The notes under the pieces were generated by a model that saw nothing but the letters and a program-made list of their open reading frames with translations, was not told the DNA's origin and searched no databases. From Patescibacteria group bacterium (GTDB taxonomy: Bacteria > Patescibacteriota > Patescibacteriia > UBA2196), in NCBI GenBank assembly GCA_028748975.1, contig JAQTPI010000004.1, positions 14,734 to 78,733 of the forward strand: DNA of 64,000 bases, in the 5' to 3' direction. This document shows, in pieces, positions 2-32,485 of the stretch. Position numbers and translations under genes: made by a program. Every line of letters starts with the position of its first letter. The first letter of the stretch is position 1.

Positions 2-649
2 GGAAATCAGCTCTTTGCCGGCACCCAGGCTGGCTTGTTCGTCTCCACTGATGACGGCGTTTCCTGGACAGCGGTTCCCGGCATCAGCTGGGACACTTCG
101 GTCAGAGCACTGGCGGTTAGTGGCAAGAATATTTTCCTCGGAACATGGGGAAAAGGATTGTTCCTCTCCACTGACAGTGGCACAACCTGGAGCAAGAATG
201 CCACAACTGGTTTGCCAACTGATGAATATGGAAGTGCTTTCATTATTTCTCTATTTGTCACGGACGACGGATATCTGTTGGCTGGCGCGTTCCATAACGG
301 TATCTGGCGCCGGGCACTCTCCGAGATGATTGAAACCTCGGTGGAGGAACCGGATCAGCCAGGTCAGCCAGAAGTTTCTTCGCCCACTGCTTTCCAGCTG
401 GCGCAGAACTTTCCCAACCCGTTCAATCCGACCACGACTATTGTCTACTCCATTCCCAAATCCAGCAGTGTCAGACTTTCTGTGTTTGACGCCTCTGGTC
501 GGGAAGTAGCAGTGCTCGTGAATGCTCGACAGAATGCCGGGGAATACCGCGCCACCTTCAATGGCGCCAATCTGCCGGCTGGCGTGTACTTCTACCGCCT
601 GCAGGCCGATAATTTCATTCAAACAAAAAAGATGTCTTACCTTAAATGA
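2..649 (+). CDS. 3' fragment of a secreted BNR/Asp-box repeat protein with a Por/T9SS-type C-terminal sorting domain. The gene is 5'-truncated by the window.
   Basis: The open frame enters from the window start (the track begins it at a TTG at 35). Repeated S-x-D-x-G-x-(T/S)-W motifs (STDDGVSW, STDSGTTW) are present. The C-terminal about 80 aa (FPNPFNPTTTIVYSIP...VYFYRL) matches the T9SS/Por C-terminal domain pattern. GC is about 55%, well above the window average. Confidence 0.6.
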   Translation, partial: GNQLFAGTQAGLFVSTDDGVSWTAVPGISWDTSVRALAVSGKNIFLGTWGKGLFLSTDSGTTWSKNATTGLPTDEYGSAFIISLFVTDDGYLLAGAFHNGIWRRALSEMIETSVEEPDQPGQPEVSSPTAFQLAQNFPNPFNPTTTIVYSIPKSSSVRLSVFDASGREVAVLVNARQNAGEYRATFNGANLPAGVYFYRLQADNFIQTKKMSYLK

Positions 650-2348: not shown

Positions 2349-2489
2349 TTAACCGGATCGCGGATTGCAATCCGGATTACACGAACCGCCCGGGAGACAG
2401 GTCGGGTTGCAATCGTTGTCCGTTGGGAAACAACGATTCTCGCCTTTCCTGAAGTCGGTGCCGGCTGTGACTTCCAGAATTTCGAACAT
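2349..2489 (-). CDS. RiPP precursor peptide A1 (46 aa): MFEILEVTAGTDFRKGENRCFPTDNDCNPTCLPGGSCNPDCNPRSG.
   Basis: Absent from the ORF track. A strong SD (ggaaggaggtgaaaagg) precedes the ATG, which begins 21 nt after the rSAM stop. The core has five Cys with CNP/DC motifs. Confidence 0.65.
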   Translation of the reverse strand: MFEILEVTAGTDFRKGENRCFPTDNDCNPTCLPGGSCNPDCNPRSG

Positions 2490-2509
2490 CCTTTTCACCT
2501 CCTTCCACC

Positions 2510-3769
2510 CTAGTTCCATTTGCCAGTATAAGGATTATACAAACAATCAATTGGTTTGGCAAATAAATCGCCAGTTGGAGAAGAGTTTTTGGCTTTAGGT
2601 CGGCAATCAAAACAACAATATCTATATTCGCAATCCTTACAAGTTTTCACTTGGTCTTTTGTAATGTTACGAATTTTTAATGCTTTTTCATTGCCGATTA
2701 TTTCTGACACTGAACCGTCAAAAACATTTCCTAAAACTAAATTCCTTTCCATAATACAGGGTATTATGTCTCCGGTTGGTGTTACGCAGATGTTTTTTGA
2801 AAAGCAATTGTGTCCACACTGAGCTCTTTGAAATTTTGGTAAGGTACAATGGCTAAAAGATGGTTTACTGATTTGATATTTCTTTAAGATTTCTTTGGGT
2901 ATTAACTGATTATTTTTTCCATTTCCACATGGCCTTACGGGATCTATCTTCACGTTTTGAATGCCTAAGTTTTGAACAAATCGTCGAGCATCATAAACAT
3001 TGTCTTGATTAATGTTCATCGCTACAATACCAACTCGTGTTTTGATTCCAACATCAACCATCTTTTTTAAATTGCTGATTGTTTTTTCAAAACTACCTTT
3101 TACGCGAGTCACTTTGTCGTGTATTTCCGCTTGATCTCCATAGATCGACACAGCGACGTTTATTTGATTGGCCCCGAAAAAAGCAATATTTGAATCGTTT
3201 ATCAGTGTGGCATTGGTGAAAACTTCAATAAATTCAAAACCTATTTTTTTACTTATCTCGATGAGTTTAATTAATCTTTTGGATATAATCATTGGCTCAC
3301 CACCGATAAATTGCAGTTTTTTACAACCAATAGCGTAGGATTGTTGCATCACCCTAACCCAATCCTTGTCGGTCATTTTATTTTTTGGATGGTTTTGTTT
3401 TTTCTTTTCGACCCGATAGCAGTGCAGACACTTTAGATTGCAAGCTCCGGTTATTTCTAACCAAACAAATTCCAAAGGAGCAGGTTTTTCAAAAACTATT
3501 TTATTTACCTTTTCCCTATTTGTTAAAATATGACCAAGTTTAAGATCGGTTAAATTTTTAATACAGGCGGCTGCTTTTTCTGCTAAAACACCGTCTTGGT
3601 AAGATTTAAGTAGTGTTTGAATTTCTAATCCGTCTTCCAGTTTTTTTATCAATTTCACAACGTATTCGTCAACTGAATAAACTTTTCCGTTTTCTAGATT
3701 ATGAACCACACCTCTTTTTGCTCCCTCAACAAGGAAGCAGTATTTTTCTAGAGCAAAAAAACCCTTCAT
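2510..3769 (-). CDS. Radical SAM enzyme with a C-terminal SPASM domain and an N-terminal about 100-aa extension (possible RiPP recognition element); candidate RiPP maturase.
   Basis: CNLKCLHC (CxxxCxxC) and the GGEP motif mark the rSAM core. The C-terminal Cys cluster CGHNCF...CVTPTGDIIPC...CKDCEYRYCCFDCRP is typical of SPASM auxiliary Fe-S domains. A strong SD (aaggaggaaagcaaa) precedes the ATG. Confidence 0.85.
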   Translation of the reverse strand: MKGFFALEKYCFLVEGAKRGVVHNLENGKVYSVDEYVVKLIKKLEDGLEIQTLLKSYQDGVLAEKAAACIKNLTDLKLGHILTNREKVNKIVFEKPAPLEFVWLEITGACNLKCLHCYRVEKKKQNHPKNKMTDKDWVRVMQQSYAIGCKKLQFIGGEPMIISKRLIKLIEISKKIGFEFIEVFTNATLINDSNIAFFGANQINVAVSIYGDQAEIHDKVTRVKGSFEKTISNLKKMVDVGIKTRVGIVAMNINQDNVYDARRFVQNLGIQNVKIDPVRPCGNGKNNQLIPKEILKKYQISKPSFSHCTLPKFQRAQCGHNCFSKNICVTPTGDIIPCIMERNLVLGNVFDGSVSEIIGNEKALKIRNITKDQVKTCKDCEYRYCCFDCRPKAKNSSPTGDLFAKPIDCLYNPYTGKWN

Positions 3770-4101: not shown

Positions 4102-7100
4102 ATGAAAATTAAAAGATATAAAATTTTATTGGTCGGAGTGATTTTAATTTTAATCGCCGGTGGTTTTTTTGTCATCCAAAAATCCGGCCAGGAAGCCGAA
4201 GCGCAGGGGCTCTTGCCGCTTAGCCCGCCGACCAATGTGCAAAAAAATTATGCCACCACCGCCCTGATTGATTGGAGTTGGAGCGCGCCAGTATCCGGCG
4301 GCCTGCCGATTGATTATTACAAAGTCTACACTGGCAGCGGTGGCTTCATCTCCGATGTCACCGGCACCAACTATACGCAACCCGGGCTTAATCCCAGCAC
4401 GCAATATTCCATTAAGGTTATGAGCTGTAAATATGGCAGTGACCCGACCTGCACCGGCCCATATTATGCCAGCACTTTTTCCAGCACGGCTTATGGCTAT
4501 ACCAAAGCCAACACTCCCAGTAATCTGACTGTTTCTCCATCCGCGGATTGCTTGGCTGATAATTACGGAGCCAGCGGGGAGTGCCAATTGACTTGGAGCT
4601 GGAGCGCGAATGACAACTCGGCGGGCACAAATTATTATTATTCAACAGATGAAGGTGCGGGCGCGTGGACAACCAGTTTGAGCTATACAGAAACAATCAG
4701 TTTTGACAGTTGCCGTACGCATACCGCGGGCAGCACGGCGCATACTTTTTACGTGAAAGCCAAGAATGGAGAAGGTGAAGAAACTGACACGACAAGTTTA
4801 AGCAAGACGGAATATAATGTGTGTGATTGGTTGGAAGATTTTGTTTTAAGTCATATTCCTCCTTATGCCAACCAATTTCGCGCTACCTGGACTCCCTCTC
4901 CAAATATTGAGATTCGAGCAGCATTAAATGGCGGTAATTTTCAGACAATAACAAACAATGGAACATTTATGGCTGGACCAGATGGGGTTTGGGCAAATGC
5001 AAGAAATTGGGTGGATTTTCAATGGCATTATGTTGGTGAAGCGTGGCCTCCTAATATAATAATAACCAAAGAAATAAAAGCCCTTCTTCCTCAAGTCGCT
5101 TCAGTTTCTTGTTCCGGCGCTACCACAAATTCTTTGACAGTGACAGCAGAGGGTGGGGGACTGGGTTTTCCAAACCTTTTTACTCTTCTAAGTGGAGTAA
5201 AAATGTCAAAGGCCGTGGTCTATGGAACAGATGATGATGTTGGGACGTATAGTAGTGGCTACCCAACATCAATACCTTTGACTTGGACGGTTTCCAATCT
5301 TTCTCCCAACACTTCCTATTCTTTTAAATTTATAAGCTATAACCAAGAAGGCACGGCAAACTGGGAAACAGAAGCTTTAACTGCCGGGAGCTGTCGGACG
5401 GCCGCGGCGGTTTATCCTCAATGCGGAACAACAACATATAGCCCGGCGCCGCCAACTTGGACCCACAGCAGCGTGCTGGTTTCCATCCCCTGCACGGAAG
5501 AGGGCGGGCCTGGCTGCTCCAAATCAACCTACACCTTGAGCCGTTCAAGCAATGGCAGCGGCACCATTGTTATTAGTGATATTGTCGGCAACACGACCGA
5601 GTGCCCCTACAACGTCACCAACATTGATAAAATTGCGCCAACAGTGAATTCTTTTACAGTTGACGATCATGCTTCTGATTTTACCAGCTCTGACACTGGG
5701 CCGGTGATTGACTGGACCGTGGCTGATTCTGGCGGGTCAGGACTGAAACAGGTGGAGGTTTGGCGCAAAACCGCTGGCGGAGATTGGATACTGATTTATA
5801 CCACCACTGATGTTTCCGGCAATGGCCCGACCAGCGGTTCTTTTACTGACTCGGTTGATTGTCTGCCTTCCCACCAACCCTACACCTATGGCATTCATGT
5901 TTTGGATAATGCCAATAATATCGGTTATGAAAATAATCCCATCGCGGTGACCCTTTCAAATTGCGGCGGGACGCCAACTTGCGGCAGTAATGACAATGGC
6001 GAAGGCGATTTGTTGCAGGCCACCTGCGAGAACGCGCCGATTTTTGGCAAATGGAATTATGCTTCTGACGACGCGACAGGCATGTGCTGGAAAAAAGACC
6101 GCGACGACCCCTATCTTTGCTGCGGTGACGACTCGGGTGAAAATTGGGATTATTTCCGCGAATTTTTTGGCAGTTTTGGCAGTTATTCCACCGATGAGAA
6201 TGACAATGCTTGCTGTAATAATGCTTCTGACTGCGTCTTTAATCACACCTGCTATGATGGTGATGCGAATGGCGCCAGTTTTGAATCCGCTTCCTGCATG
6301 AGCGGCCAAAGATATTGCGGCGGACCCAATGTTTATACTTGGGAAACCGACGCTGATTACAATTTTGCCGTCTGCCAATGTTTGCAAGGTTCTGCCGACC
6401 GCTGGAATGAAAGCGGCTGGTTTGGCGGCAACCAAATTAATTGGAGCATTGGTGGTTATTCGCAAGACCGTTGCTGCGGCGATGATGCTGGAGAAGTTTT
6501 TGCCAACGGTGTTTGTACCACTGGCGCGGCTCTGCCGGATTTGGTGGTGGAAAGCGTGACGCCGCCGACAGGCCTGATTTGCATGGGCAGAAGCGCCACA
6601 TTTTCCGCCGTGATTAAAAACACCGGCAATGCTTCAACCGGCGCGGGGTTTGCCAACCAGATTACTTTGGTGGACACGGGCTCGTGCTTGGCCAATTCTA
6701 CCGCGCTCACGGCGAGCGAAAGCAAAAATATTTCCTGCGCCATTACGCCGAGCGCGGCTGGAATTAAAACCGTGATGTCGCAGGCAGATTATGACGATGC
6801 CATTTCCGAATCCAATGAAGACAATAATGGCCGAGACACCACCGCCACAATTTTTGCCACGCCAAACACGCCCACGGGTTTGACAGCCACCGGCATTGGC
6901 GCCACGGACATCACTTGGGACTGGGACAACATGAGCGGCGCCACTTCTTATATAATTTTATTAAACGGCATTCCGGTTGACACGGTAACCAGCAGCCAAT
7001 ACATTGCCCAGGATCTTTGGGGCGCGGCTGATTATACCATCACAGTTCAAAGTTACAACGGTTGTGGTGTCAGCAGCGGAGCGCAACACACAGTCACCAG

Positions 7101-10100
7101 GGGCGTGAGTTTAGCCGGGTCGCCGGGCGCGCAGACAATTAACCAAGGCGCGAGCGCCATTTACACCATTACAGTTTCCTCGGTTAATGGTTTGGCTGAT
7201 ACAGTTAATCTTACTCTCTCCGGCTGTCCCAGCGGGGCAACTTGCCAGCTTTCGGGCAGTTCCGTGATTTTAAATAATAATTCACAGGGCGTGACTTTGA
7301 CAGTCAGCAATGCCAGCGTTGGCGGACCCTACACTCTAACCATTTCCGGACATGGCGTGGCTTCAAATAAAAACGGCGCCACCACCGTGGATTTGACCGT
7401 GGTTGAGGCCAACTATCCATCGGTTTCCATCTGGGCCATTCCGCAGACAATCGCGCGCGGGCAATCTTCCGTTGTTTCCTGGACTTCCAATAATGCCAGC
7501 AGTGTTGACATAACCAACATTGGCACTGGTCTTGCCACGAGTGGCAACCAGTCGGTGGCGCCGACAGTGACCACGACCTACACGGCCACGGCTTATGGCA
7601 GCGGCGGACGCACGGCCACGGCGAGCGTGACCGTGACCGTGACTAATCCGACAGAAATTTATTGCGGAGACGGAGTTTGTAATGGCGCGGAAACTTGCTC
7701 CACCTGCCCCTCTGACTGCGGAATATGCGTGGGCGGCGGCGGCGACTCTCCGAGCACCCCCACGAATTTAAGCGGTCCTTCCGGCTGTACCACCGACACC
7801 ACGCCAAGCTTCAGTTTTACAGTTTCCGACCCGGATTTTGGCGACAAGGTTGGCTATCAAATTCAAATTGATGACAGCGCCACTTTTGCATCGCCCTTGA
7901 TTGATTTCACCTGGAGCAGCTTGGGTGATACTCCGCAAAACGGCACTTTTGACACGCCAAGTTCCTGCCCCACGCCACTCGGCGGCTATGCTGTCTGCAA
8001 TACGCCTTTGCCGGCCGGCAACTATTATTGGCGCGTGCGCGCTTTGGACAACCACAGTAATTTTTCCTCCTATGAATCCGGCAGCGCTTTTTCCGTGGCG
8101 GCGGTTTGCGGCGGGGGTGGCGGCGTGAACGCGGATTTCACTGTTTGCAAATACAGCGCCGACACTTTTCAATTTTTAAACGCCACCGAGGGCGTCACTG
8201 TGCCAACCTATGGCTGGAATTTTGATGATGGCACGGGTTGCGCCGAAACCGGCTGTACGGCGAGCATTGGCGGCACCACCATTGGCACACGCATTGATCC
8301 GGCGCATAAATTTAATAATAATTATTGGGCCAAACGAATCAAGATTACTTTCAGCAATGGCGGACAGGCGGAAAATTTGGTGGATTTCCCGGTTTTAATC
8401 AAACTTAATGGCAGCCGCATTGATTACACTCAAACCCAAAACAGCGGGCAGGATTTGCGCTTTTTTGACGCGGACGGCGGCACGGAATTGGCTTATGAAA
8501 TTGAAAAATGGAATGAAAGCGGAGATTCTTTTGTCTGGGTGAAAGTGCCACAAATTGACGCCAGTTCTAATTCCGATTACATTTGGTTGTATTATGGCAA
8601 TCCGGCGGCAACGGCTGGCGCCAATGCCGAAAGTGTTTGGAACAGCGGTTATGCCGCGGTTTATCACCTGAAAGAAACTTCCGGTAAACATTATGATTCC
8701 ACGGCGAATAATAATGATTCCGAAAATAATCCAAACGTACAAACACAAGGCAGTGCCGCAGGCAAAATTGACGGCGCGGATGATTTCTTAAAAGAAGTAA
8801 ACGGAGAGGGCGAAGAAACCTCTAGTGATTCCATTACAATTAATGATAGTAATAGTTTGGATTTGACCAATGCTTTGACGATTGAGGCTTGGGTGCGCTC
8901 AGACTATTTGGAAAATCGTGACCGTATTGTGTCTAAGGGTTCTATTTCCCAGACCTATGTTTTGCGGCAAGAAATTTCTGACACCGGTGGTTCTTTCCCA
9001 GGTTCTTTGCATTTTTTTGGCGCTGGTGTTGCTCAAGCCAGAAGTATTTTAACCGCTGGCACTCTTCAATATATAGCGGCCACTTGGGATGGAATTAATG
9101 GCGACCATAAACCCAAACTTTTTAATAATGGTTCGGAAGTCAGTTCTTATTTTGCGCAAACAGCCAAAACAGCACCTATAAATGCAAACACCGAAGTTTT
9201 GACCATTGGCAATATTGATCAGGGTTGGGACGGTATTATTGATGAAATGCGGCTTTCCAATGTGGCGCGCTCCGCGGCCTGGCTCAAAGCGCAGTATCTT
9301 TCCATGAGCGACACGTTTAACACTTTCAGCAGCCAAGAAAGTTTGGGATACGTGATTGACGGAGGCAAAGTGGCGGGGGCGACGGATGAATTAAGAATTA
9401 TGAATCAAGAATTAAGGACGACTGATAACGGGCAACAAACAACCGACAACTTACAACAAATAACCAACAAAAATATTTTTGAAAAGATTTGGGCGGGAAT
9501 TAAAACGGCGGGGAAATGGGCGGTGAATTTATTCAAAGCCAAAGATTCAGAGGCCTTAAGCGCCACCTATTCGGTCATGCTTTCGGTCAATGACCCGGCT
9601 GGCAATGACACGGAAACAAAAGTGGTGAATTTGGCGAGCGTGCCGCTGTGTGAATTCAACCTGACTAATGTTTCTTCCTTGAGTTGCGGACGGGTGGACG
9701 GCGAATGGGAAAAATTTGGCGGTTTCGCTGACGCCGGCGCCTACACGGTGAAAAGATGCGCGGGCAGCGGCTGCAGTGATTTTGACACGGTCAGCGTAAC
9801 CAAGTCCTGTTCCACCTCTTGTTATTTTGAAGATATTGGCGTGGAGCCAAGCACCGCGTATTCATATTACATTTCTTTGCCAACGCAAGGAGTGAAAAAT
9901 TCCACTGACAATCCGGCTTGCGACGGTGCCTCCGCGATTTGTCCGCTCAGCGTCACTACTGCGGTGTGCGGCGTGGAAGGTTCGGACATAGTGACCACAC
10001 GCGCCTGCGGAAAAATTACTTTGATTTGGGACGAAGTGGAGGGTTCAACTATTTATGAAGTTCAAAGGGCGATTGGCGCCAGTGATAATACTTTTACCAC

Positions 10101-10308
10101 GGTGGCGACCTTGGGCGCGGGTACAACGCTTTATGAAGATGAGGACGTGGTTACAGTCAGCACCACCAAACCTGCTAACCAGTTCCGTTATTGGTATCGC
10201 GTGCGTTCGCAGGCAAGCAATGGCCAATGGTCTGATTGGTCAGCGGCCGCGCCGGTTGGCGGCGAGTATTCCTATTGTTACCGCGGGCCGAGCTGGGAGG
10301 AGAGGTAA
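4102..10308 (+). CDS. Giant (2068 aa) cell-surface protein: N-terminal signal anchor, several fibronectin-III-like modules, a CARDB-like module, Cys-rich segments, a DUF2341-like region followed by a LamG/concanavalin-like region, and further Ig-like repeats.
   Basis: One uninterrupted ORF. It begins with the hydrophobic helix MKIKRYKILLVGVILILIAGGFFVI. FN3-like W/Y/T-spaced segments are present, and LPDLVVESVTPP...NTGNASTG resembles CARDB. LVDFPVLIKLNGSRIDY...WVKVP resembles DUF2341, and EAWVRSD...DEMRLSNVARSAAW resembles LamG. GC is about 52%. Confidence 0.8.
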   Translation: MKIKRYKILLVGVILILIAGGFFVIQKSGQEAEAQGLLPLSPPTNVQKNYATTALIDWSWSAPVSGGLPIDYYKVYTGSGGFISDVTGTNYTQPGLNPSTQYSIKVMSCKYGSDPTCTGPYYASTFSSTAYGYTKANTPSNLTVSPSADCLADNYGASGECQLTWSWSANDNSAGTNYYYSTDEGAGAWTTSLSYTETISFDSCRTHTAGSTAHTFYVKAKNGEGEETDTTSLSKTEYNVCDWLEDFVLSHIPPYANQFRATWTPSPNIEIRAALNGGNFQTITNNGTFMAGPDGVWANARNWVDFQWHYVGEAWPPNIIITKEIKALLPQVASVSCSGATTNSLTVTAEGGGLGFPNLFTLLSGVKMSKAVVYGTDDDVGTYSSGYPTSIPLTWTVSNLSPNTSYSFKFISYNQEGTANWETEALTAGSCRTAAAVYPQCGTTTYSPAPPTWTHSSVLVSIPCTEEGGPGCSKSTYTLSRSSNGSGTIVISDIVGNTTECPYNVTNIDKIAPTVNSFTVDDHASDFTSSDTGPVIDWTVADSGGSGLKQVEVWRKTAGGDWILIYTTTDVSGNGPTSGSFTDSVDCLPSHQPYTYGIHVLDNANNIGYENNPIAVTLSNCGGTPTCGSNDNGEGDLLQATCENAPIFGKWNYASDDATGMCWKKDRDDPYLCCGDDSGENWDYFREFFGSFGSYSTDENDNACCNNASDCVFNHTCYDGDANGASFESASCMSGQRYCGGPNVYTWETDADYNFAVCQCLQGSADRWNESGWFGGNQINWSIGGYSQDRCCGDDAGEVFANGVCTTGAALPDLVVESVTPPTGLICMGRSATFSAVIKNTGNASTGAGFANQITLVDTGSCLANSTALTASESKNISCAITPSAAGIKTVMSQADYDDAISESNEDNNGRDTTATIFATPNTPTGLTATGIGATDITWDWDNMSGATSYIILLNGIPVDTVTSSQYIAQDLWGAADYTITVQSYNGCGVSSGAQHTVTRGVSLAGSPGAQTINQGASAIYTITVSSVNGLADTVNLTLSGCPSGATCQLSGSSVILNNNSQGVTLTVSNASVGGPYTLTISGHGVASNKNGATTVDLTVVEANYPSVSIWAIPQTIARGQSSVVSWTSNNASSVDITNIGTGLATSGNQSVAPTVTTTYTATAYGSGGRTATASVTVTVTNPTEIYCGDGVCNGAETCSTCPSDCGICVGGGGDSPSTPTNLSGPSGCTTDTTPSFSFTVSDPDFGDKVGYQIQIDDSATFASPLIDFTWSSLGDTPQNGTFDTPSSCPTPLGGYAVCNTPLPAGNYYWRVRALDNHSNFSSYESGSAFSVAAVCGGGGGVNADFTVCKYSADTFQFLNATEGVTVPTYGWNFDDGTGCAETGCTASIGGTTIGTRIDPAHKFNNNYWAKRIKITFSNGGQAENLVDFPVLIKLNGSRIDYTQTQNSGQDLRFFDADGGTELAYEIEKWNESGDSFVWVKVPQIDASSNSDYIWLYYGNPAATAGANAESVWNSGYAAVYHLKETSGKHYDSTANNNDSENNPNVQTQGSAAGKIDGADDFLKEVNGEGEETSSDSITINDSNSLDLTNALTIEAWVRSDYLENRDRIVSKGSISQTYVLRQEISDTGGSFPGSLHFFGAGVAQARSILTAGTLQYIAATWDGINGDHKPKLFNNGSEVSSYFAQTAKTAPINANTEVLTIGNIDQGWDGIIDEMRLSNVARSAAWLKAQYLSMSDTFNTFSSQESLGYVIDGGKVAGATDELRIMNQELRTTDNGQQTTDNLQQITNKNIFEKIWAGIKTAGKWAVNLFKAKDSEALSATYSVMLSVNDPAGNDTETKVVNLASVPLCEFNLTNVSSLSCGRVDGEWEKFGGFADAGAYTVKRCAGSGCSDFDTVSVTKSCSTSCYFEDIGVEPSTAYSYYISLPTQGVKNSTDNPACDGASAICPLSVTTAVCGVEGSDIVTTRACGKITLIWDEVEGSTIYEVQRAIGASDNTFTTVATLGAGTTLYEDEDVVTVSTTKPANQFRYWYRVRSQASNGQWSDWSAAAPVGGEYSYCYRGPSWEER

Positions 10309-12039: not shown

Positions 12040-12132
12040 TTTCTGTTCCCCTTATTACTTATTACTTATTACTTATTACTAGTTACTTATTACCCGCTTC
12101 TAATGTTTTTATGCTTTAATGTTTTAATGTTT
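12040..12132. repeat. Microsatellite block: (TTATTAC)n / TTATTACTAGTTACTTATTAC, then (TTTTAATG)n running into the annotated start region.
   Basis: Direct reading. These are reverse complements of the GTAATAAG / CATTAAAG families seen after other genes. Confidence 0.8.
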
Positions 12133-12153
12133 TTATGGTATAATAAAATAGAT

Positions 12154-14043
12154 ATGCACCACAGAAAAATCTTACTGACTTTTCTGTTTTTAGCCGTTCT
12201 GATGATTGGCGGATTTTTGGCGTCAACAAAAGCGGCCTGGGCCGGCACTGGTAAAATCGTGGGCGATAAATATAACCTGCCCTATCCGCGCATCGGCGTG
12301 TTTCTTTGGGCCGGCACCACGGAATGGTTCGCGCAAAAAGGAATTGATTTGGTGGCGGCGAGCCCGGGCGTGGACATTGAGGGAGTAAAAAAATTAAGTC
12401 CGAAAGTTTTAGTCAGCCACACCAATGACATCAATAAATTATGCGGCGACGATCGGCCGGAAGAATGGTATTATCATGACGCCGATGGCAATCGTGTTTC
12501 CTACTGGGGCGGCTATCTTTGTAATTTTAATTATCAGCCTTTCCGTGAATTCGTCGGCAATACTTTTGCCGGCATGGTGGGCGGCGCCGATTTCGTCACC
12601 ACCGATGGGCTGTGGACCATGCCTGGCCGGGCAGAAATTTTACAGACGGTTCGAAGCCGGATTGGCGACACGCCTTTTATGGTCAATGGCAATGGCGGCT
12701 ATGAACAAGATAAAAGCATGTATGAATATTACAATGGCAGTTTTTTGGAAGATGGCGGCAATTTCAACAGCAATTGGGATTCAGCTTTTGGCACCTATGA
12801 AGACATGATGAATTATGCCCGCCAGCCGCACATCATCGTCATTGACGGCACCCCGACCAACTGGAGCTTGCCCAACATGACTGATGATTTCAAATTGATG
12901 CGCTTTGGCCTTGGCACGACGCTTCTTGGCGACGGCTATTTTTCTTACGAAGTCGGAATTAATAATCATTTTTATATCGGCTATTTTGACGAGTATGATT
13001 TGGATTTGGGCTATCCCAAAGGCGCGCCGCAGTGCATCAAAAACGAAGGCCGCTGGGGTTATGAAAAACGCTGCGTTTTCGTGAGGTTTTTTGACAAGGG
13101 CGTTTCCATTTTGAATGTCAAAGGCAAATCCGAATCAATCAGTGATAATGATTTAAAAAGCTTGCCCGGTTATGCTGGCCCGTATTATCGCTTTCGGGGC
13201 GGGCAGGACACGGTTTGGAATAATGGACAGCTTTTTACCAGTTTGAATTTGGACGGCCAGAAAGAATTAACCAACGAGCAGTACGAGCATTATAAAATTT
13301 GGGGTGACGCCATCATTCTTTTAAAAGAACCGAAAGTGGTGGTGGCGGACATTATTATTGATGACCACCCGCTGGTCACCTCGCCGGCTAACAAACAAAC
13401 AGAACTGAAAGGTGCGGCCTGGGAAATTGTCAAACCCGGTAAAGGCGATAAGTTTTGGCGGCTTTATAGTTCGGAATTGGGAGAAAGTCCGGCATCTTAC
13501 GGCGCGATTTCCGCCAGTAAAAACGCGGAAGCAATTTTTCGGCCAAAGATTGGCGTGCCGGGCCGCTACCGCGTCTCTGAATGGCATGGCAATGATTATG
13601 CCGAGAGTGAAACAACCAGCGCCATTTATGAAATAAATTATAAAGGCGGAGTTAAAGTTGAATCAATTAACCAATCCCAAAGTTATGGCCAATGGAATTT
13701 TTTAGGCGAGTTTTATTTCACAGAGGGAGACAGCGGCTATGTCAAATTGAATAATAATGGCCAAGGAGTTTTGGTAGCGGACGCGGTGAAATTTGAATAT
13801 CAAGACGCGGTGTTGATGGCTGACTTTAACTGTGACGGGCAGATTAATATCGCTGATTTCGGAATTTTATTGTCGCACTGGGGGCAAAAAGAAAATAACG
13901 GTTCGCTGAAAAAATACAAACATCCCCTGTGTCAGGAAGCAAAAAGTTTGGATTTAGTGTTAGATAATACAATTAACATCAAAGATTTGGGCGCCCTGCT
14001 TTCCTGCTGGGGCAATCCGGATAATGAGACGTGTTATCAGTAA
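12154..14043 (+). CDS. Secreted protein (about 629 aa) with a C-terminal pair of dockerin-like Ca-binding repeats.
   Basis: The likely true start is ATG 12154 (MHHRKILLTFLFLAVLMIGG); the track ORF 12103 begins inside the TTTTAATG repeats. The C-terminus carries DFNCDGQINIADFGILLSHWG ... NTINIKDLGALLSCWG, which resembles dockerin type-I duplicated repeats. Confidence 0.65.
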   Translation: MHHRKILLTFLFLAVLMIGGFLASTKAAWAGTGKIVGDKYNLPYPRIGVFLWAGTTEWFAQKGIDLVAASPGVDIEGVKKLSPKVLVSHTNDINKLCGDDRPEEWYYHDADGNRVSYWGGYLCNFNYQPFREFVGNTFAGMVGGADFVTTDGLWTMPGRAEILQTVRSRIGDTPFMVNGNGGYEQDKSMYEYYNGSFLEDGGNFNSNWDSAFGTYEDMMNYARQPHIIVIDGTPTNWSLPNMTDDFKLMRFGLGTTLLGDGYFSYEVGINNHFYIGYFDEYDLDLGYPKGAPQCIKNEGRWGYEKRCVFVRFFDKGVSILNVKGKSESISDNDLKSLPGYAGPYYRFRGGQDTVWNNGQLFTSLNLDGQKELTNEQYEHYKIWGDAIILLKEPKVVVADIIIDDHPLVTSPANKQTELKGAAWEIVKPGKGDKFWRLYSSELGESPASYGAISASKNAEAIFRPKIGVPGRYRVSEWHGNDYAESETTSAIYEINYKGGVKVESINQSQSYGQWNFLGEFYFTEGDSGYVKLNNNGQGVLVADAVKFEYQDAVLMADFNCDGQINIADFGILLSHWGQKENNGSLKKYKHPLCQEAKSLDLVLDNTINIKDLGALLSCWGNPDNETCYQ

Positions 14044-14128: not shown

Positions 14129-16216
14129 ATGAAAGAAAAATCTGAAAATAAAACATTATCTATTGCCTTTGGAATAATTTTGGGCGTGCTTTTATTTTTC
14201 TTTGGCAAGCTGTGTCTGGCCGCTGTTTTTCCCGGCATTGATTTGCCGACTTTTGAAGAAAGGAGAGCGGCTTACATTAAAGACCAGGGGCAAAGCGTCA
14301 GCGGCGATTTTCCCTACTCCATGAGAATACCGCTTTTTGCCTGGCTGGAAACACCAGAGCAAAACAAAGGACGAATTAGCGAGGAAATTGGATACATGAC
14401 CAGTATGGGCGATGATTGCAGTAGTGGACAGCAAGATTGGAGCAATTGCTGGTGGACCGGCGACCACCCCAACACCATTGTCGCCAGTTATGTTTATTAC
14501 AAATATTATCAGGATAAAAAAGTTATTTATGATTCAGACGCGGCCAGAATCAGAGAAAAATTATTTTCCATCGCCGAAATGGGCACCAAAAAGGACTTGG
14601 CCAAAACTTTTTGGGGCTGCGACGGCAATTATTTTTATCGTTATTTTGTGACTGGATATCTTTACGCCGTCAGAATTGGCGGGCTGGGCAAGGCGTATTT
14701 TGATAACGTGCCAACCTGTGCCAATAAGTTCACTTACCAGGGCCGAAAATACACTAGTGGAAATTATTACGAGGCAAAACAATTTTATAGCGATTATCTG
14801 GGGTACACCATGGATTCCTTGCTGAAAAGTGGAGACAACGAGGATTTTGGCAATTACTATTATTCCCAAATTCAATCCATTGCTGCTGTTTATGATTTTA
14901 GTCCGGACGCGCAACTGAAAAGAAAGGCGAAAATGCTCTTGGATTGGCTGAACTTCACTTATGCTGTCGGTTTTAGCGTCGGACATTTTGCCGACGGCCA
15001 TGGCCGCACCTATTTTGAATATCACGGGCGAGTGATGGATAATTTTCCTTTTTCCACTTTTTTCTATCTTGATAAACACCTGGCCGAACAGCTGCAAATG
15101 TGGTCCAATTCCCAAGAATTTTATATTTCCGCTTACCGCTATCCGGAGGTGATGAGAAAAATTTTTGAAAAAATAAACGGTCCGAATATGTCGGAAACCG
15201 ACGGTGATTATTATCGGATTGTGCGCGGCAACGATCCGCGGCTGGGCTGTGAAAAAACAGATCGGGGAGAGAAATGCTATCGCTATGAATATGTGACGCC
15301 GTATTATAATCTGGGCGGTTCTGGTTTGGGCACGGGCTGGGAGTTGAATATCAAAAGCGAGACATTGCCGTTTCGGGTTTGGATAAATTCTTGCAACAAG
15401 GTTTATGAAAGAGGCTGCAACGGGCAGCTGACTTGGGGCTGGAGCGAACTGTTTAGAACAGGAGCTTTGGGTTACCAATATAAAAACGCCATTTTCTATT
15501 ATGGCGGCGGTAACATCCAGCAAGAGATTGGCAACGGTTCTTGGTCAGAGACGGCGGAATATGATTATAAAGATGGCTGGGGGGATGAAAGAAAGTGGCA
15601 GTTTTTTAGAAAAGAAGGCGTGGCTGTGGCGGCGGAAGTCAGAGGCAATGGCCCTTCGGCGCTGGAAGTGGTAAAACTGGGCGTGGATTATCCGGATTTC
15701 AACTCTTTCATTGGGGCGGTGAAGAGAAATTCTAAATTAAGCTGGGATGGTTTTACCACCAGTAAGGGCTTCACCATTACCAAAGGATTTGTTGATTATG
15801 GTTCGGAATATACCAAATTGCCTTTTGACCGGCTGGAAGTTTGGGAGGGACATGTTAATAAAAATGATGAGAAAAAAATTGTTGATTGGAATAACAATGT
15901 GATGACAGTGACACAAGGCAATTTAACGTGCAAATATAATTTTAACAGCTGGACTTTTTCTGGTAATGGCTGCGCGGGCCAGGGCGCCGCTTACAAGGCC
16001 GATTTCAACTGCGACGGGGTGATAAATATTTCCGATTTTGGAATTTTGCTGTCGCACTGGGGGCAGACGGAGAAAATTAAAGAGTATCAAAACGCCCAGT
16101 GCGGCGTGGCAAGAAGCTTGGATTTGGCGGCGAATAATCGAATTGACACCAGTGATTTAAGCGCCTTGCTTTCCTGTTGGGGCACGCCGGAGGAGGAAGT
16201 GTGCATGGAGAAGTGA
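14129..16216 (+). CDS. Secreted protein (695 aa) with the same C-terminal dockerin-like module as 12154..14043.
   Basis: It has an N-terminal signal anchor. The C-terminus DFNCDGVINISDFGILLSHWGQ ... NRIDTSDLSALLSCWGTPEEEVC is near-identical to the module of its neighbour. Confidence 0.7.
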   Translation: MKEKSENKTLSIAFGIILGVLLFFFGKLCLAAVFPGIDLPTFEERRAAYIKDQGQSVSGDFPYSMRIPLFAWLETPEQNKGRISEEIGYMTSMGDDCSSGQQDWSNCWWTGDHPNTIVASYVYYKYYQDKKVIYDSDAARIREKLFSIAEMGTKKDLAKTFWGCDGNYFYRYFVTGYLYAVRIGGLGKAYFDNVPTCANKFTYQGRKYTSGNYYEAKQFYSDYLGYTMDSLLKSGDNEDFGNYYYSQIQSIAAVYDFSPDAQLKRKAKMLLDWLNFTYAVGFSVGHFADGHGRTYFEYHGRVMDNFPFSTFFYLDKHLAEQLQMWSNSQEFYISAYRYPEVMRKIFEKINGPNMSETDGDYYRIVRGNDPRLGCEKTDRGEKCYRYEYVTPYYNLGGSGLGTGWELNIKSETLPFRVWINSCNKVYERGCNGQLTWGWSELFRTGALGYQYKNAIFYYGGGNIQQEIGNGSWSETAEYDYKDGWGDERKWQFFRKEGVAVAAEVRGNGPSALEVVKLGVDYPDFNSFIGAVKRNSKLSWDGFTTSKGFTITKGFVDYGSEYTKLPFDRLEVWEGHVNKNDEKKIVDWNNNVMTVTQGNLTCKYNFNSWTFSGNGCAGQGAAYKADFNCDGVINISDFGILLSHWGQTEKIKEYQNAQCGVARSLDLAANNRIDTSDLSALLSCWGTPEEEVCMEK

Positions 16217-19367: not shown

Positions 19368-19407
19368 TACTCGTACAATTCTCACGATCGTGAGAATTGT
19401 ACGAGTA
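19368..19407. promoter_or_regulatory. 40-bp perfect palindrome with the same 12-bp core TCACGATCGTGA, 21 nt after the PaaX-like stop.
   Basis: 20/20 complementary arms (attactcgtacaattctcacga|tcgtgagaattgtacgagtaat). Confidence 0.6.
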
Positions 19408-19540
19408 CGAGTTGGAGGACATGGTTTTTAATAGTAATTATTAATTTTAAAAAAATGATAAATAAAAAACGGTTAATTGAAAATGATGTTGAAATTCAAT
19501 TAACCGTTTATTGAGAATCACCAAAAAATTGGTGATGAGA

Positions 19541-19612
19541 GTCGGCGGAGGGATTCGAACCCCCGAACACGGATTTGCAATCCGTGTCCTTAAACCACTC
19601 GGACACGCCGAC
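19541..19612 (-). tRNA. tRNA-Cys (GCA).
   Basis: The reverse complement folds as a cloverleaf: acceptor GTCGGCG, D-arm TGTCCGAGTGGTTTAAGGACA, anticodon stem ACGGA/TCCGT with loop TTGCAAA, and T-arm GGGGGTTCGAATCCC. Confidence 0.8.
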
Positions 19613-19623
19613 AACTCTGTCAG

Positions 19624-19698
19624 TACGCCCGGAAGGATTCGAACCTTCAACCCTTCCCCACAAGAGCGGGGTGCTCTATCCAATTGAGCTACGGGCGC
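19624..19698 (-). tRNA. tRNA with a canonical D- and T-arm but an irregular anticodon stem; the anticodon is probably CTT (Lys).
   Basis: Acceptor GCGCCCG/CGGGCGT, D-arm TAGCTCAATTGGATAGAGC and T-arm GAAGGTTCGAATCCTTC are canonical. The anticodon region CCCCG-CTCTTGT-GGGGA pairs only 3-4 bp, so the anticodon assignment is tentative. Confidence 0.5.
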
Positions 19699-19731
19699 GC
19701 TGCCATGAAATGAATTCGTCACGGCTAGCTT

Positions 19732-19808
19732 TGGCGCCACCTACGGGTTTTGAACCCGTATTCCCCGGATCAATAATCCGAAGTCTTAACCAATTAGATG
19801 AAAGCGGC
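19732..19808 (-). tRNA. tRNA-like gene with an encoded CCA and an atypical anticodon loop (TTATTGA, giving anticodon ATT); possibly a pseudo-tRNA or a non-canonical decoder.
   Basis: Acceptor GCCGCTT/AGGTGGC (two G-U pairs), a weak D-stem, anticodon stem TCGGA/TCCGG, T-arm ACGGGTTCAAAACCCGT, and a 3' GCCA end. A34 with G37 is abnormal. Confidence 0.35.
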
Positions 19809-19827
19809 TCTGCTGAAATAATTTTGT

Positions 19828-19898
19828 AGCGGGCGAGGGACTCGGACCCCAACCTTCGGTGTATCAGACCGAAACTCTGCCAATTGAGCTACGCCCGC
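19828..19898 (-). tRNA. tRNA-Ile (GAT).
   Basis: Acceptor GCGGGCG/CGCCCGC, D-arm TAGCTCAATTGGCAGAGT, anticodon stem TCGGT/ACCGA with loop CTGATAC. The T-arm is somewhat irregular. Confidence 0.7.
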
Positions 19899-19903
19899 AG
19901 TTT

Positions 19904-20054
19904 TGGTGGAGCCGGCAGGATTCGAACCTGCGACCTTTCAAACTCGTAGAATTGGCCAATTTTTCCCTCACGCGCGCTTGGGAAAATTTGGGCAATTTTT
20001 ACCCTCTTTTTTAAGGAGAGAAGTTTGAAAACTCTCCCAACTGAGCTACGGCCC
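19904..20054 (-). tRNA. tRNA with Ala-type identity elements (G3:U70, D-arm TAGCTCAGTTGGGAGAG, encoded CCA), interrupted by an about 85-nt insertion between the two halves of the anticodon stem; intron-containing or disrupted.
   Basis: 5' half GGGGCCGTAGCTCAGTTGGGAGAGTTTTCAAAC, and 3' half GTTTGAAAGGTCGCAGGTTCGAATCCTGCCGGCTCCACCA. The halves TTCAAAC/GTTTGAA pair across an insert that has its own hairpins (ttttccc...gggaaaa; the AATTGGCCAATT palindrome). Confidence 0.55.
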
Positions 20055-20208
20055 CGATTCAACACGAGAACAAAATCGTAAAATAAAGTGACTTTTTTAT
20101 TTTAACAAGGTCTAAAAAACTTGTCAAATGTGGATAAGTAATATAAAATATAATAAGTAACTACCAATAAATAATAAGGGAAAAAATGAATAATCCCAAT
20201 GTTATTTT

Positions 20209-23610: not shown

Positions 23611-24687
23611 TTGATGTTTTTACATAATTATATTCCCAATCCAATTTTACTTGATTTAGGATTTTATCAAATCCGCTGGTATGGCCTTATTTTAGCGTTG
23701 GCCGTGGCTGGCGGATTTTTTATTCTTGCCCGCCTTCGCCGCTACGGTCAAGCCGGCGGCTATGGCGGGCAAGTTTCTGATCTTTTTACCAAAGACAATT
23801 TTTTTAATCTATTATTTTGGGTTGCGATTTGGGGAATTATCGGCGGAAGGTTGGTTCATGTTTTAACTTTTTTTGATTATTACTGGCAGCGGCCGCTGCA
23901 GATACTCGCAATTTGGAACGGGGGAATCGCTTTCTATGGCGTGTTTGCTGGTGGGTTAATTGCGGCAGGGGTTTTGACGCGCCGTGTCATCCTGAGCGAA
24001 GCCCGAATCCGCCAGCTGGCGGAGAGGGCGAAGCCGAAGGATTCCTCATACTTTCCATATGATAAAGGCGAAGGCCCGCCCGCCATGACTTCGTCAAGGC
24101 GAAGTCGGGCGGGGATTCATCGCTCCGCTCGGAATGACAAGAAAAACAAAACCATTATTCATCATTCATTATTCATTATTCTTGATGCCCTCGTCGTCGG
24201 CTTGGCTTTCGGCCAATTCATCGGCCGGTGGGGAAATTGGTTTAATCAGGAGCTTTTTGGAGGGCCAACGAATTTGCCTTGGGGAATTCCGATTGATATT
24301 TGGCATAGGCCAGTCGGCTTGGAAAATTTTACTTACTTTCATCCAATTTTTTTGTATGAGAGTCTGTTTTCTTTGGTTTTGTTTTTGGGGTTGTATTTTT
24401 TATACAAAAAAATACATTGTCATTTCGGGCCGAGACCCGGAATCCAGGAGAGTGGATCCCGGATCGGAGTCCGGGATGACAAGGCGGGTTTTGTTTTCTC
24501 CGCTTTTTTAATCTTCCATTCCACTGCCCGGTTTTTTTTGGAGTTTTTGCGCCTTGACGCGCAGCCGGAGTTTTTGGGTCTGTGCCTTTTCCAGTGGGTG
24601 GCGATAATAGAATTTATTTTGGGGTGGGTTGTGTATTTTTATGTTAGGGTGTGGTATAATAAAAGTAAGCTACGAATTTACGAATAA
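23611..24687 (+). CDS. lgt: Prolipoprotein diacylglyceryl transferase carrying two in-frame palindromic-element insertions.
   Basis: Lgt hallmarks are present (WYGLILALAVAGG, GGRLVHVL, WNGGIAFYGVFAGG, GRWGNWFNQELFGG, FLRLDAQPEF). They are interrupted by an about 50-aa insert (VILSEARIRQ...NDKKNKT) and an about 20-aa insert (GPRPGIQESGSRIGVRDDKAGF), encoded by family-A elements. Confidence 0.85.
   Translation: MMFLHNYIPNPILLDLGFYQIRWYGLILALAVAGGFFILARLRRYGQAGGYGGQVSDLFTKDNFFNLLFWVAIWGIIGGRLVHVLTFFDYYWQRPLQILAIWNGGIAFYGVFAGGLIAAGVLTRRVILSEARIRQLAERAKPKDSSYFPYDKGEGPPAMTSSRRSRAGIHRSARNDKKNKTIIHHSLFIILDALVVGLAFGQFIGRWGNWFNQELFGGPTNLPWGIPIDIWHRPVGLENFTYFHPIFLYESLFSLVLFLGLYFLYKKIHCHFGPRPGIQESGSRIGVRDDKAGFVFSAFLIFHSTARFFLEFLRLDAQPEFLGLCLFQWVAIIEFILGWVVYFYVRVWYNKSKLRIYE
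23984..24141. repeat. Composite of two family-A palindromic elements inserted in-frame in lgt.
   Basis: gtcatcctgagcgaagcc...ccgccagctggcgg...cgaaggattcct and ...ggattcatcgctccgctcggaatgacaa. No stop codons are present in the lgt frame. Confidence 0.75.
24426..24486. repeat. Family-A palindromic element inserted in-frame in lgt (second site).
   Basis: gggccgagacccggaatccaggagagtggatcccggatcggagtccgggatgacaa. Confidence 0.7.
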
Positions 24688-32088: not shown

Positions 32089-32485
32089 TGGTGGAGGCGG
32101 CCGGAATTTCACCGGCGTCTAACGTTAATCAATAAACTATTCTACAAGCGTAGTTCGTTTTATGGTTCAACTTTAAGCTTGAAAACGGACAAAACACTTA
32201 AAGTTAAAGCCCAGAGTTTCGCCATTTTTACCGGGCCAGTAACAATGGCTAGTCCACTGTTTATAACACCCAAAACGACTTAGTGAACCTCGGTCGTTTG
32301 GATGGCCATAGGATTTAAGCTATGGCATAAGCCGGTTGAGAAACAAAAGCGTTAGCCAAAGAGGCAACGCCAGCTTTCACCCGGTTATATAGATTGGCAT
32401 TTATAGCCTTTGAGGCGGTTTTACGGGGCACCCCGGCCCGACTTGCTTAATTTAAAGCTTAAAGCTATCAAATTAAAACGCCCCC
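32089..32485 (-). ncRNA. ssrA: Candidate tmRNA (ssrA), about 397 nt, with an encoded CCA.
   Basis: 5' GGGGGCG pairs with 3' CGCCUCC-A-CCA and includes G3:U70. A T-arm GCCGG-UGAAAUU-CCGGC is present. A pseudoknot-like CCGGGGUGCCCCGUAAAACCGCC precedes an internal reading frame ending ...QPAYAIA-UAA (GCC AUA GCU UAA), which resembles tag-peptide termini. smpB lies 0.7 kb away, and a TTGACA-17-TATACT promoter lies 58 nt upstream. Confidence 0.55.

Follow-up and report, generated by a model that had tools for sequence, protein, structure and literature searches.

Described systems closest to the locus

Bacillus cereus has tRNA-Other, an expressed pseudo-tRNA that is described as non-translational (PMC3399842). 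In transfer-messenger RNA (tmRNA), RNase P processes the upper half, which is also alanylated and is a ligand of EF-Tu (PMC3985003), and the Patescibacteria are rich in tRNA introns, the known examples of which are group I introns of 184-894 nt (PMC13011429). Here we analyze a tRNA-Ala-like gene from a Patescibacteria group bacterium (assembly GCA_028748975.1) that lies within a 64,000-nt stretch of contig JAQTPI010000004.1 (positions 14,734 to 78,733), hereafter called the window. The gene runs from 20055 to 19904 on the minus strand and is 152 nt long including its encoded CCA. Overall, we give a probability of about 0.55 to the reading that this element is an anticodon-less tRNA-Ala derivative, a pseudo-tRNA, and most probably it is a relic within an operon of tRNA genes whose turnover in this lineage is rapid. 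We take the element for one more disabled or tRNA-like tRNA derivative, a kind of object already described, and not for a new class of intron.

Like tRNA-Other, the element is tRNA-shaped, derived from a normal tRNA gene and non-decoding, and it would also be expressed. It is unlike tRNA-Other in the nature of its defect, in that a structured module of 83 nt has taken the entire place of the anticodon loop while the tRNA-Ala top half is left flawless. With the tRNA-like domain of tmRNA it shares G3:U70, A73, the CCA end, the acceptor and T arms and a long helix in place of the anticodon arm; however, its D arm is complete, pseudoknots and a tag frame are absent, and its match to tmRNA is below threshold. 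The group I tRNA introns of the same phylum likewise interrupt the anticodon loop and are missed by standard tRNA finders, but they match intron models and leave a normal anticodon (PMC13011429), whereas the element leaves no alanine anticodon. Archaeal and eukaryal bulge-helix-bulge introns resemble it in being tens of nucleotides long, in lying in the anticodon arm and in the pairing of 5' loop bases with the insert's 3' end. The element differs from these in its continuous 11-bp helix, in its bacterial host and in having no splicing endonuclease gene in the 10 window open reading frames (ORFs) that were scanned. Finally, YrlA also joins Ala-type acceptor, D and T arms to a long protein-binding stem that replaces the anticodon arm, but YrlA is circularly permuted, has both of its ends in the long, Rsr-binding stem and is encoded beside rsr, whereas the element has a normal tRNA topology.

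A tRNA-Ala top half without an anticodon loop

Read 5' to 3', the element is GGGGCCG UA GCUC AGUUGGGA GAGU U UUCAA, then 83 nt, then UUGAA AGGUC GCAGG UUCGAAU CCUGC CGGCUCC A CCA. The Rfam tRNA model (RF00005) aligns over its full length, positions 1-71, with a score of 46.7 bits, well beyond the gathering score of 29. The acceptor stem has all 7 pairs, including G1:C72, G2:C71, G3:U70 and G4:C69, with its 5' strand GGGGCCG at 20049..20055 and its 3' strand CGGCUCC, discriminator A73 and encoded CCA at 19904..19914. The D arm (GCUC-AGUUGGGA-GAGU, 20031..20046) has G18, G19 and G20 all present in its loop, the T arm (GCAGG-UUCGAAU-CCUGC, 19915..19931) is preceded by the variable region AGGUC (19932-19936) and has the T loop UUCGAAU, and G15/C48 is intact. 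The acceptor identity set for tRNA-Ala under Escherichia coli rules (G3:U70, A73, G2:C71, G4:C69 and G20) is thus complete in the element.

When compared with canonical tRNA-Ala genes, the top half matches the best of them at 49 of 55 positions. One departure is a G10.U25 wobble in the D arm where canonical genes have G-C. A second is the hinge of U25 and U26, which sets the element apart from all 181 canonical tRNA-Ala genes in the fetched loci, where position 26 is always a purine. These same genes (181 of 181) are also invariant for U33, an NGC anticodon and A37.

The element lacks the usual anticodon loop of 7 nt, in which position 33 is U and position 37 is a purine. In the Infernal register, 83 nt (19942-20024) stand in place of this loop between UUCAA and UUGAA, a net excess of 76 nt, and the 81-nt segment at 19943..20023 replaces loop positions 33-37. 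In the minimum free energy (MFE) fold the equivalent of the anticodon stem is extended to an 11-bp helix (U25-U35 with G111-G121), the 5' strand of which (20021..20031) contains UUCAA at 20025-20029 and the deviant U26, and the 3' strand of which (GAGUUUGAAAG, 19935..19945) contains UUGAA at 19937-19941. This helix bears a small 14-nt side hairpin, CCUU-AAAAAA-GAGG (20003..20016), and a long imperfect 57-nt hairpin (19946..20002) composed of GUA/UAC, AAUUG/CAAUU, CCAA/UUGG and UUUUCCC/GGGAAAA with the apical loop AAGCGCGCGUGA. The fold of the complete RNA has an energy of -56.8 kcal/mol (z = -3.8, with 0 of 200 shuffles as good) and keeps the acceptor and T arms intact, while the arm folded alone reaches -30.8 kcal/mol (z = -4.1).

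These results agree closely with the original prediction, made from the sequence alone, of a split tRNA with Ala elements and an acceptor stem containing G3:U70. All that has to be added is the orientation, as the minus strand carries the gene. The stretch of about 85 nt that was described between TTCAAAC and GTTTGAA measures 83 nt by Infernal, and the proposed hairpins are real, the fold containing UUUUCCC/GGGAAAA, AAUUG-CCAA/UUGG-CAAUU and CCUU/GAGG. The caution that the anticodon could not be read has turned out to be an understatement, as no Ala anticodon is recoverable at all.

Specifically, we enumerated by hand every single contiguous deletion that leaves a 5-bp stem and a 7-nt loop, and none of these joins restores a U33-NGC-A37 loop. 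In the Infernal register (UUCAA at 27-31, UUGAA at 39-43) a join that keeps at least two of the 5' loop bases gives C33, any other join gives A33, and the anticodon is never NGC. Since the joins yield only C33 or A33 and the hinge is U25/U26, the loop is not simply interrupted; rather, positions 33-37 are gone and the hinge is changed. Of the origins first suggested for the locus, an element insertion that killed the gene comes closest to this evidence, although a replacement of positions 33-37 together with changes at hinge positions 25/26 is not a simple insertion.

On the plus strand, opposite the insert and the 5' half of the element, positions 20013-20081 contain AAGGAG followed, after 6 nt, by a TTG-initiated 18-codon ORF. 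This ORF is probably fortuitous, with AAGGAG being the complement of CUCUCCUU in the RNA.

The tRNA operon and the expected fate of the transcript

The element is the first of five tRNA-type genes in an operon that is divergent from gatCA. A sigma-70-type promoter (TTGACA-17-TAAAAT with an extended TG, matching 11 of 12 consensus positions) lies about 40 nt upstream at 20099..20127 on the minus strand, and a comparable promoter is kept in three relatives (L240, L241 and L242). The four co-transcribed downstream tRNA genes identified with ARAGORN and Rfam (19540..19898, all on the minus strand) are tRNA-Ile(GAU) at 19828-19898, which starts 5 nt after the CCA of the element, an 'Asn'(AUU) tRNA at 19735-19808, an Arg-like tRNA at 19624-19698 and tRNA-Cys(GCA) at 19540-19612. 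The operon ends with a terminator-like 18-bp hairpin at 19368..19407, also on the minus strand.

Aberrant features occur in three of the four tRNAs downstream of the element. The tRNA-Ile(GAU) has a T stem of only 4 bp and the T loop UCCGAGU, the 'Asn' tRNA has A34 in its AUU anticodon as well as a D-stem mismatch, and the Arg-like tRNA, which has A20 and an acceptor stem as in the tRNA-Arg of relatives, has a 6-nt anticodon loop, CUCUUG. The aberrant tRNAs of the operon score 47-56 bits as compared with 58-77 bits for the tRNAs of related genomes.

An anticodon-less derivative could have arisen here when loop positions 33-37 were replaced by a self-complementary segment of about 81 nt and hinge positions 25/26 were remodelled, such that the remodelled anticodon stem would now run into the 11-bp helix with its two hairpins. 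The element would then be transcribed from the near-consensus promoter within a complete transcription unit that has both a promoter and a terminator. As RNase P and the 3' processing enzymes read only the acceptor/T-arm half, which is intact, they would still be expected to release the RNA. From what is known of tRNA biology AlaRS (alanyl-tRNA synthetase) would probably also charge it, since this enzyme reads G3:U70, A73, G2:C71, G4:C69 and G20 and ignores the anticodon. The product should nevertheless be unable to pair with any codon. The locus is a clean case of a tRNA-Ala that has lost its anticodon while a perfect, probably chargeable, top half persists, and such a top half is the same starting material as that of the tRNA-like modules of tmRNA and Y RNAs.

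The syntenic site in related genomes

The gatCA synteny was walked via 10 GatA homologues of 82-66% identity, and the same insert is present at none of these 10 loci. The comparison with relatives that the original prediction had called for could thus be made, but it provided no orthologue with the insert, and the site differs from one relative to the next. In the closest relative (L240, GatA 82% identical) a promoter of the same kind is followed by a different, 131-nt three-way-junction RNA (~335-465, minus strand), which contains a D-loop remnant, UUGGCAGAGC, and a T-like hairpin and folds with z = -7.7. In L241 (GatA 74%) there is a 59-nt minihelix of acceptor and T arm with a 27-nt linker (~3305-3370, minus strand; GGAGCGG...GGCGG UUUUAAU CCGCC CGCUCC A, with A3:U70) that lies 5 nt before a tRNA-Arg(UCG). 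L242 (GatA 72%) has tRNA-Arg(UCU), tRNA-Cys and tRNA-Val straight after the promoter, L243 (GatA 71%) is without tRNAs, and in L244 (GatA 68%) a tRNA-Val is preceded by an acceptor/T-arm remnant with AT-rich filler of about 120 nt (~2485-2625, minus strand). The L241 and L244 remnants both have a perfect acceptor stem and T arm and are without D and anticodon arms.

An alignment of the element with the L241 region runs at 81% from the T arm across the spacer and into the tRNA that follows, and from it we infer that the two come from one ancestral Ala gene that has been dismantled, and would be decaying, in a different way in each lineage. The differing sites of the relatives and the degenerate neighboring tRNAs also point to relaxed selection on the operon. 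The element is thus derived from a tRNA, is without an anticodon and is not conserved at the syntenic site of close relatives, which are the features of a pseudo-tRNA, and this Patescibacteria clade has tRNA operons with a quick turnover.

In two further relatives, L247 (~2230-2440) and L248 (~2270-2480), both on the minus strand, the gatC-divergent promoter and a small ORF flank a pair of conserved GC-rich hairpin RNAs. One hairpin reads GCCGG...ACUCGGCAC...CCGGC and the other CCNGGCCAG...GCCNGGGC followed by a U run. ARAGORN reported no tRNA genes in the hairpin region of either locus.

Similar architectures at other loci

We also scanned for comparable architectures by pattern. In genomes, with a gap of 76-136 nt, tandem tRNA-Ala pairs made up 125 of 131 of the matches listed (at least 131). 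In metagenomes, with a gap of 44-104 nt, there were fewer false matches among those listed, and the lack of close relatives in that scan is weak evidence.

Three of the scan matches listed are tRNA-Ala-like elements of 124-127 nt that have G3:U70, A73, an encoded CCA and a long hairpin replacing the anticodon loop. These occur on Parcubacteria-type contigs (L007:7744-7870, L192:2694-2820 and L223:3205-3331), in each case inside a stem-flanked insertion within the 23S rRNA gene, at a site that, from its flanking sequence, we take to be the tip of 23S helix 45, a classic site of intervening sequences. Among the three hairpins one pair changes from U-A to C-G in a compensatory manner, and the other changes are wobble-compatible. 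The window element shares with these an arm foot, YUCAA(A)CUUCU ... CUWCGARGUUKGR, and no other similarity in the insert. No description of such 23S-embedded tRNA-Ala-like elements was found in the literature searched, and tRNA-Ala-like elements in 23S intervening sequences may be a more interesting lead than the window element itself.

A second tRNA with a replaced loop is present at L245:1862-1990 (minus strand), a locus with a GatA that is 67% identical. This gene scores 56.3 bits with Rfam and has A1:U72, G73, an Asn-like body and an anticodon loop replaced by 63 AT-rich nt. ARAGORN in intron mode reads it as Asn(GUU) with a 54-nt intron, and the standard register gives C33. With the L007-type and L245 cases, a class of tRNA-like RNAs that do not decode is still a possibility for the phylum.

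Eight soil loci that had been set apart as 'family B' were rejected as interrupted tRNAs. They are junctions of tandem YrlA Y-RNA genes beside rsr, and their match is an artefact of the pattern. Specifically, these tandem YrlA-type genes (L143:69-252, L180:280-385, L186:2600-2716, L185:1345-1458 and L073:2896-3018; also L196, L239 and L114) have Ala-type (G3:U70) modules adjoining Rsr genes (TROVE plus vWA_Ro60) on high-GC soil contigs and in Longimicrobiaceae metagenome-assembled genomes. They score 37.5 bits against a YrlA gathering threshold of 69 in Rfam and are probably unannotated divergent Y RNAs.

A different tRNA-Ala-like gene of 143 nt (GGGGGAU.../...AUCCUCCA, with G3:U70) has about 70 extra nt between its D and T arms and is conserved in IMG/VR viral loci (L249:2219-2361, L251, L254 and L256) as well as in metagenome loci (L136:294-436 and L203).

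A relic or a functional RNA

Several observations weigh against a mere relic. The top half is without any decay (acceptor, D and T pairs, G18/G19, UUCGAAU, G15/C48, A73 and CCA), so that either the event is very recent or the gene is under selection. The replacing segment folds far better than shuffled sequences (z about -4), and a strong promoter is placed directly in front of the element. In addition, three stem pairs (6-67, 50-64 and 51-63) show compensatory double changes between the element and the L241 remnant, a comparison that hints at continued selection for an acceptor/T minihelix, and the 23S elements of the same architecture are conserved inside the rRNA with shared arm-foot bases. 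Some selection on the minihelix of the element is thus possible.

The alternative that gains from these observations is a functional non-decoding tRNA-like RNA, in which the top half works as a handle for RNase P and 3' processing or as an alanylated RNA outside decoding and the arm is a lineage-specific module. The element would then be grouped with the tRNA-Ala-like elements inside the 23S rRNA of Parcubacteria. We consider this possible, if clearly less probable than a pseudo-tRNA. The perfect top half with its encoded CCA, the strongly structured arm and the first place in an operon behind a promoter with an 11/12 consensus match are all in its favor. So are the 23S elements of like build with their common arm foot and compensatory hairpin pair, and the acceptor plus T-arm minihelices that relatives keep, with compensatory changes, at the operon position. 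Moreover, tmRNA is a case of a working Ala-charged tRNA top half without an anticodon (PMC3985003). However, no orthologue with the same arm was found, and the closest relative (GatA 82%) has a different RNA. The L241 and L244 minihelices are without G3:U70, so alanylation is not the conserved trait, the insert is unlike the 23S elements outside the arm foot, and the rest of the operon looks degenerate. A partner gene is also missing, as the 10 scanned window ORFs contain no Rsr/TROVE, RtcB, splicing endonuclease or Fem-type gene.

Non-decoding tRNA-like signals for RNase P and RNase Z are exemplified by the t-elements of plant mitochondria, the tRNA-like element 5' of archaeal 5S rRNA and the tRNA punctuation of mitochondrial transcripts. 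The L007-type elements and the L241 and L244 minihelices, as acceptor/T-arm mimics, are like such processing signals. The element is unlike them in that all of the downstream genes in its operon are tRNAs, which leaves an extra handle without obvious use.

A further proposal is that the element and the three 23S elements belong to one Patescibacteria family of anticodon-less RNAs that are RNase P-processed and possibly alanylated, with a conserved arm foot and a variable hairpin. We regard this family as rather doubtful. If it were true, its members would be handles for fragmenting rRNA or for releasing operon transcripts, or else a non-ribosomal Ala-RNA, and the tRNA-Ala top half would have been put to use independently for a second time, tmRNA being the first.

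Splicing, excision and assembly error

The pseudo-tRNA reading has also to be compared with a true intron, in which a segment of about 74 nt would be removed by a protein-dependent pathway, e.g. an endonuclease plus RtcB, to leave a 78-nt tRNA with the loop CUUCGAG. Default ARAGORN does not report the element gene. Its intron mode models a tRNA-Arg(UCG) with a 74-nt intron at 36/37, which is the sole spliced product that it builds, and it treats L007 (UCG) and L245 (Asn GUU, 54 nt) alike. Additional points in favor of splicing are that the first tRNA at the locus in relatives is a tRNA-Arg (UCG or UCU), that L245 is a second tRNA gene with 63 nt replacing its loop, and that tRNA introns are abundant in this phylum (PMC13011429).

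However, the Arg(UCG) product requires a spacing of 2 bases from the D stem to the anticodon stem, a 6-7-bp stem, a 6-nt variable loop and a register shifted by one base, in which only the Arg-type loops CUACGAG, CUUCGAG and CUUCUAG are obtained, and Infernal prefers the standard register. Covariance folding with intron options, a check that the original prediction had put forward, thus gave a full-length tRNA match with Rfam and, with ARAGORN, only this shifted-register product. The product would combine a full Ala identity (G3:U70, A73 and G20 rather than the A20 of the arginyl enzyme, ArgRS) with an Arg anticodon. In GatA, CGA and CGG codons align with columns in which 56-59 of 59 homologues have Arg, which indicates that the standard code is used and that an Ala-charged UCG decoder would mistranslate. 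A reassignment of CGA/CGG to Ala is rejected given the alignment of these codons with invariant Arg in GatA. Intron calls by ARAGORN also change with context, as the same 23S element L007 is called either Arg(UCG) or selenocysteine (UCA) and its close relative L223 is called Ser(CGA), so this mode is untrustworthy for these loci. Note that such loci are either missed or miscalled as a 'tRNA-Arg with intron', which distorts completeness checks of the tRNA complement of metagenome-assembled genomes.

Described types of intron fit no better. A bulge-helix-bulge intron needs two 3-nt bulges around a 4-bp helix, whereas the MFE and centroid folds both have an uninterrupted 11-bp helix (both registers were checked), and the boundary geometry differs among the window element, L007 and L245. 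A group I intron is rejected given the lack of a covariance match and a segment of 83 nt as compared with a published minimum of 184 nt (PMC13011429). Indeed, at E <= 1 region 19400-20200 is matched by none of the ribozyme and intron families of Rfam, group I included. The intron interpretation is therefore not supported, and we consider it unlikely. The novel small intron that was first suggested for this gene is likewise without support, as no join gives U33-NGC-A37 and there is neither a bulge-helix-bulge nor a ribozyme. Were the gene spliced, its intron would be the first in a bacterial tRNA that is short and does not belong to group I, and the evidence argues against splicing.

Slightly less probable still is that RNase III excises the arm without religation, as in an rRNA intervening sequence, and that the two tRNA halves are held together by the acceptor and a residual stem. 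In the predicted fold the 11-bp helix stacked on the 57-nt hairpin would form a near-continuous duplex of roughly 30 bp, and the 23S look-alikes lie in what we take to be the helix-45 intervening sequence, a classic RNase III site. But the halves would still be without an anticodon, so decoding is not rescued, and the helices are short, AU-rich and interrupted.

Finally, an assembly or binning artefact that created a chimeric join inside a tRNA gene, for which one could cite the metagenome-assembled source and the tendency of tRNA genes, as repeats, to be mis-joined, is highly improbable, as two Logan contigs from separate runs (SRR22315506 and SRR22315508) are 100% identical over 1225-1454 nt covering the element and gatC, indicating that there is no assembly error, and as both flanks fit one tRNA perfectly.

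Origin of the segment and rejected identities

In blastn searches with the insert no second copy was found in the 64-kb window or in 1.6 Mb of related loci (248 loci), where only 14-nt chance words matched. The insert junctions (CUUC...CUAC) form a direct repeat at only 3 of 4 positions. A 17-nt match with one mismatch exists between the insert and the reverse complement of the L242 promoter spacer (E = 0.014), which we judge too weak to interpret. A mobile repeat finds no support, given that the insert has no further copy in the window or the fetched loci, and the two parts of an Ala loop are not kept in the flanks. A single copy is compatible with a one-off insertion or replacement, which is the simplest origin of the segment.

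The element was also rejected as a tmRNA (RF00023), given a score of 32 bits relative to a gathering score of 47, an alignment only through the acceptor and T arm and the absence of pseudoknots. No terminated tag reading frame is present in the insert, as the sole frame that starts from a GCC is open to the 3' end without a stop. The window has a bona fide tmRNA at 32089-32485 (122 bits). YrlA (RF02553) is likewise rejected, as its match of 24.9 bits, relative to a gathering score of 69, bridges the element and the next tRNA, the topology is wrong and no TROVE domain occurs in the scanned ORFs. A split or permuted tRNA, which had been raised as a third possibility for this gene, is not supported either, given the normal topology of what is a contiguous gene and the same sub-threshold YrlA match.

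Other features of the window

No further tRNA-Ala was found within the 64-kb window by ARAGORN and Rfam. The ORF at 23611-24687 occupies the position of Lgt in the relatives and encodes 358 aa as compared with 267-286 aa for their Lgt; it appears, from its sequence, to have a basic insertion of ~70-80 residues mid-protein. Two ORFs at 12103-14043 and 14129-16216 have alike C-terminal repeats, ADFNCDGxINIxDFGILLSHWG. The window also contains giant ORFs at 4102-10308 (2068 aa), at 45306-51938 (2210 aa) and from 53730 to beyond 64000, the last of which encodes at least 3423 aa and runs off the window end.

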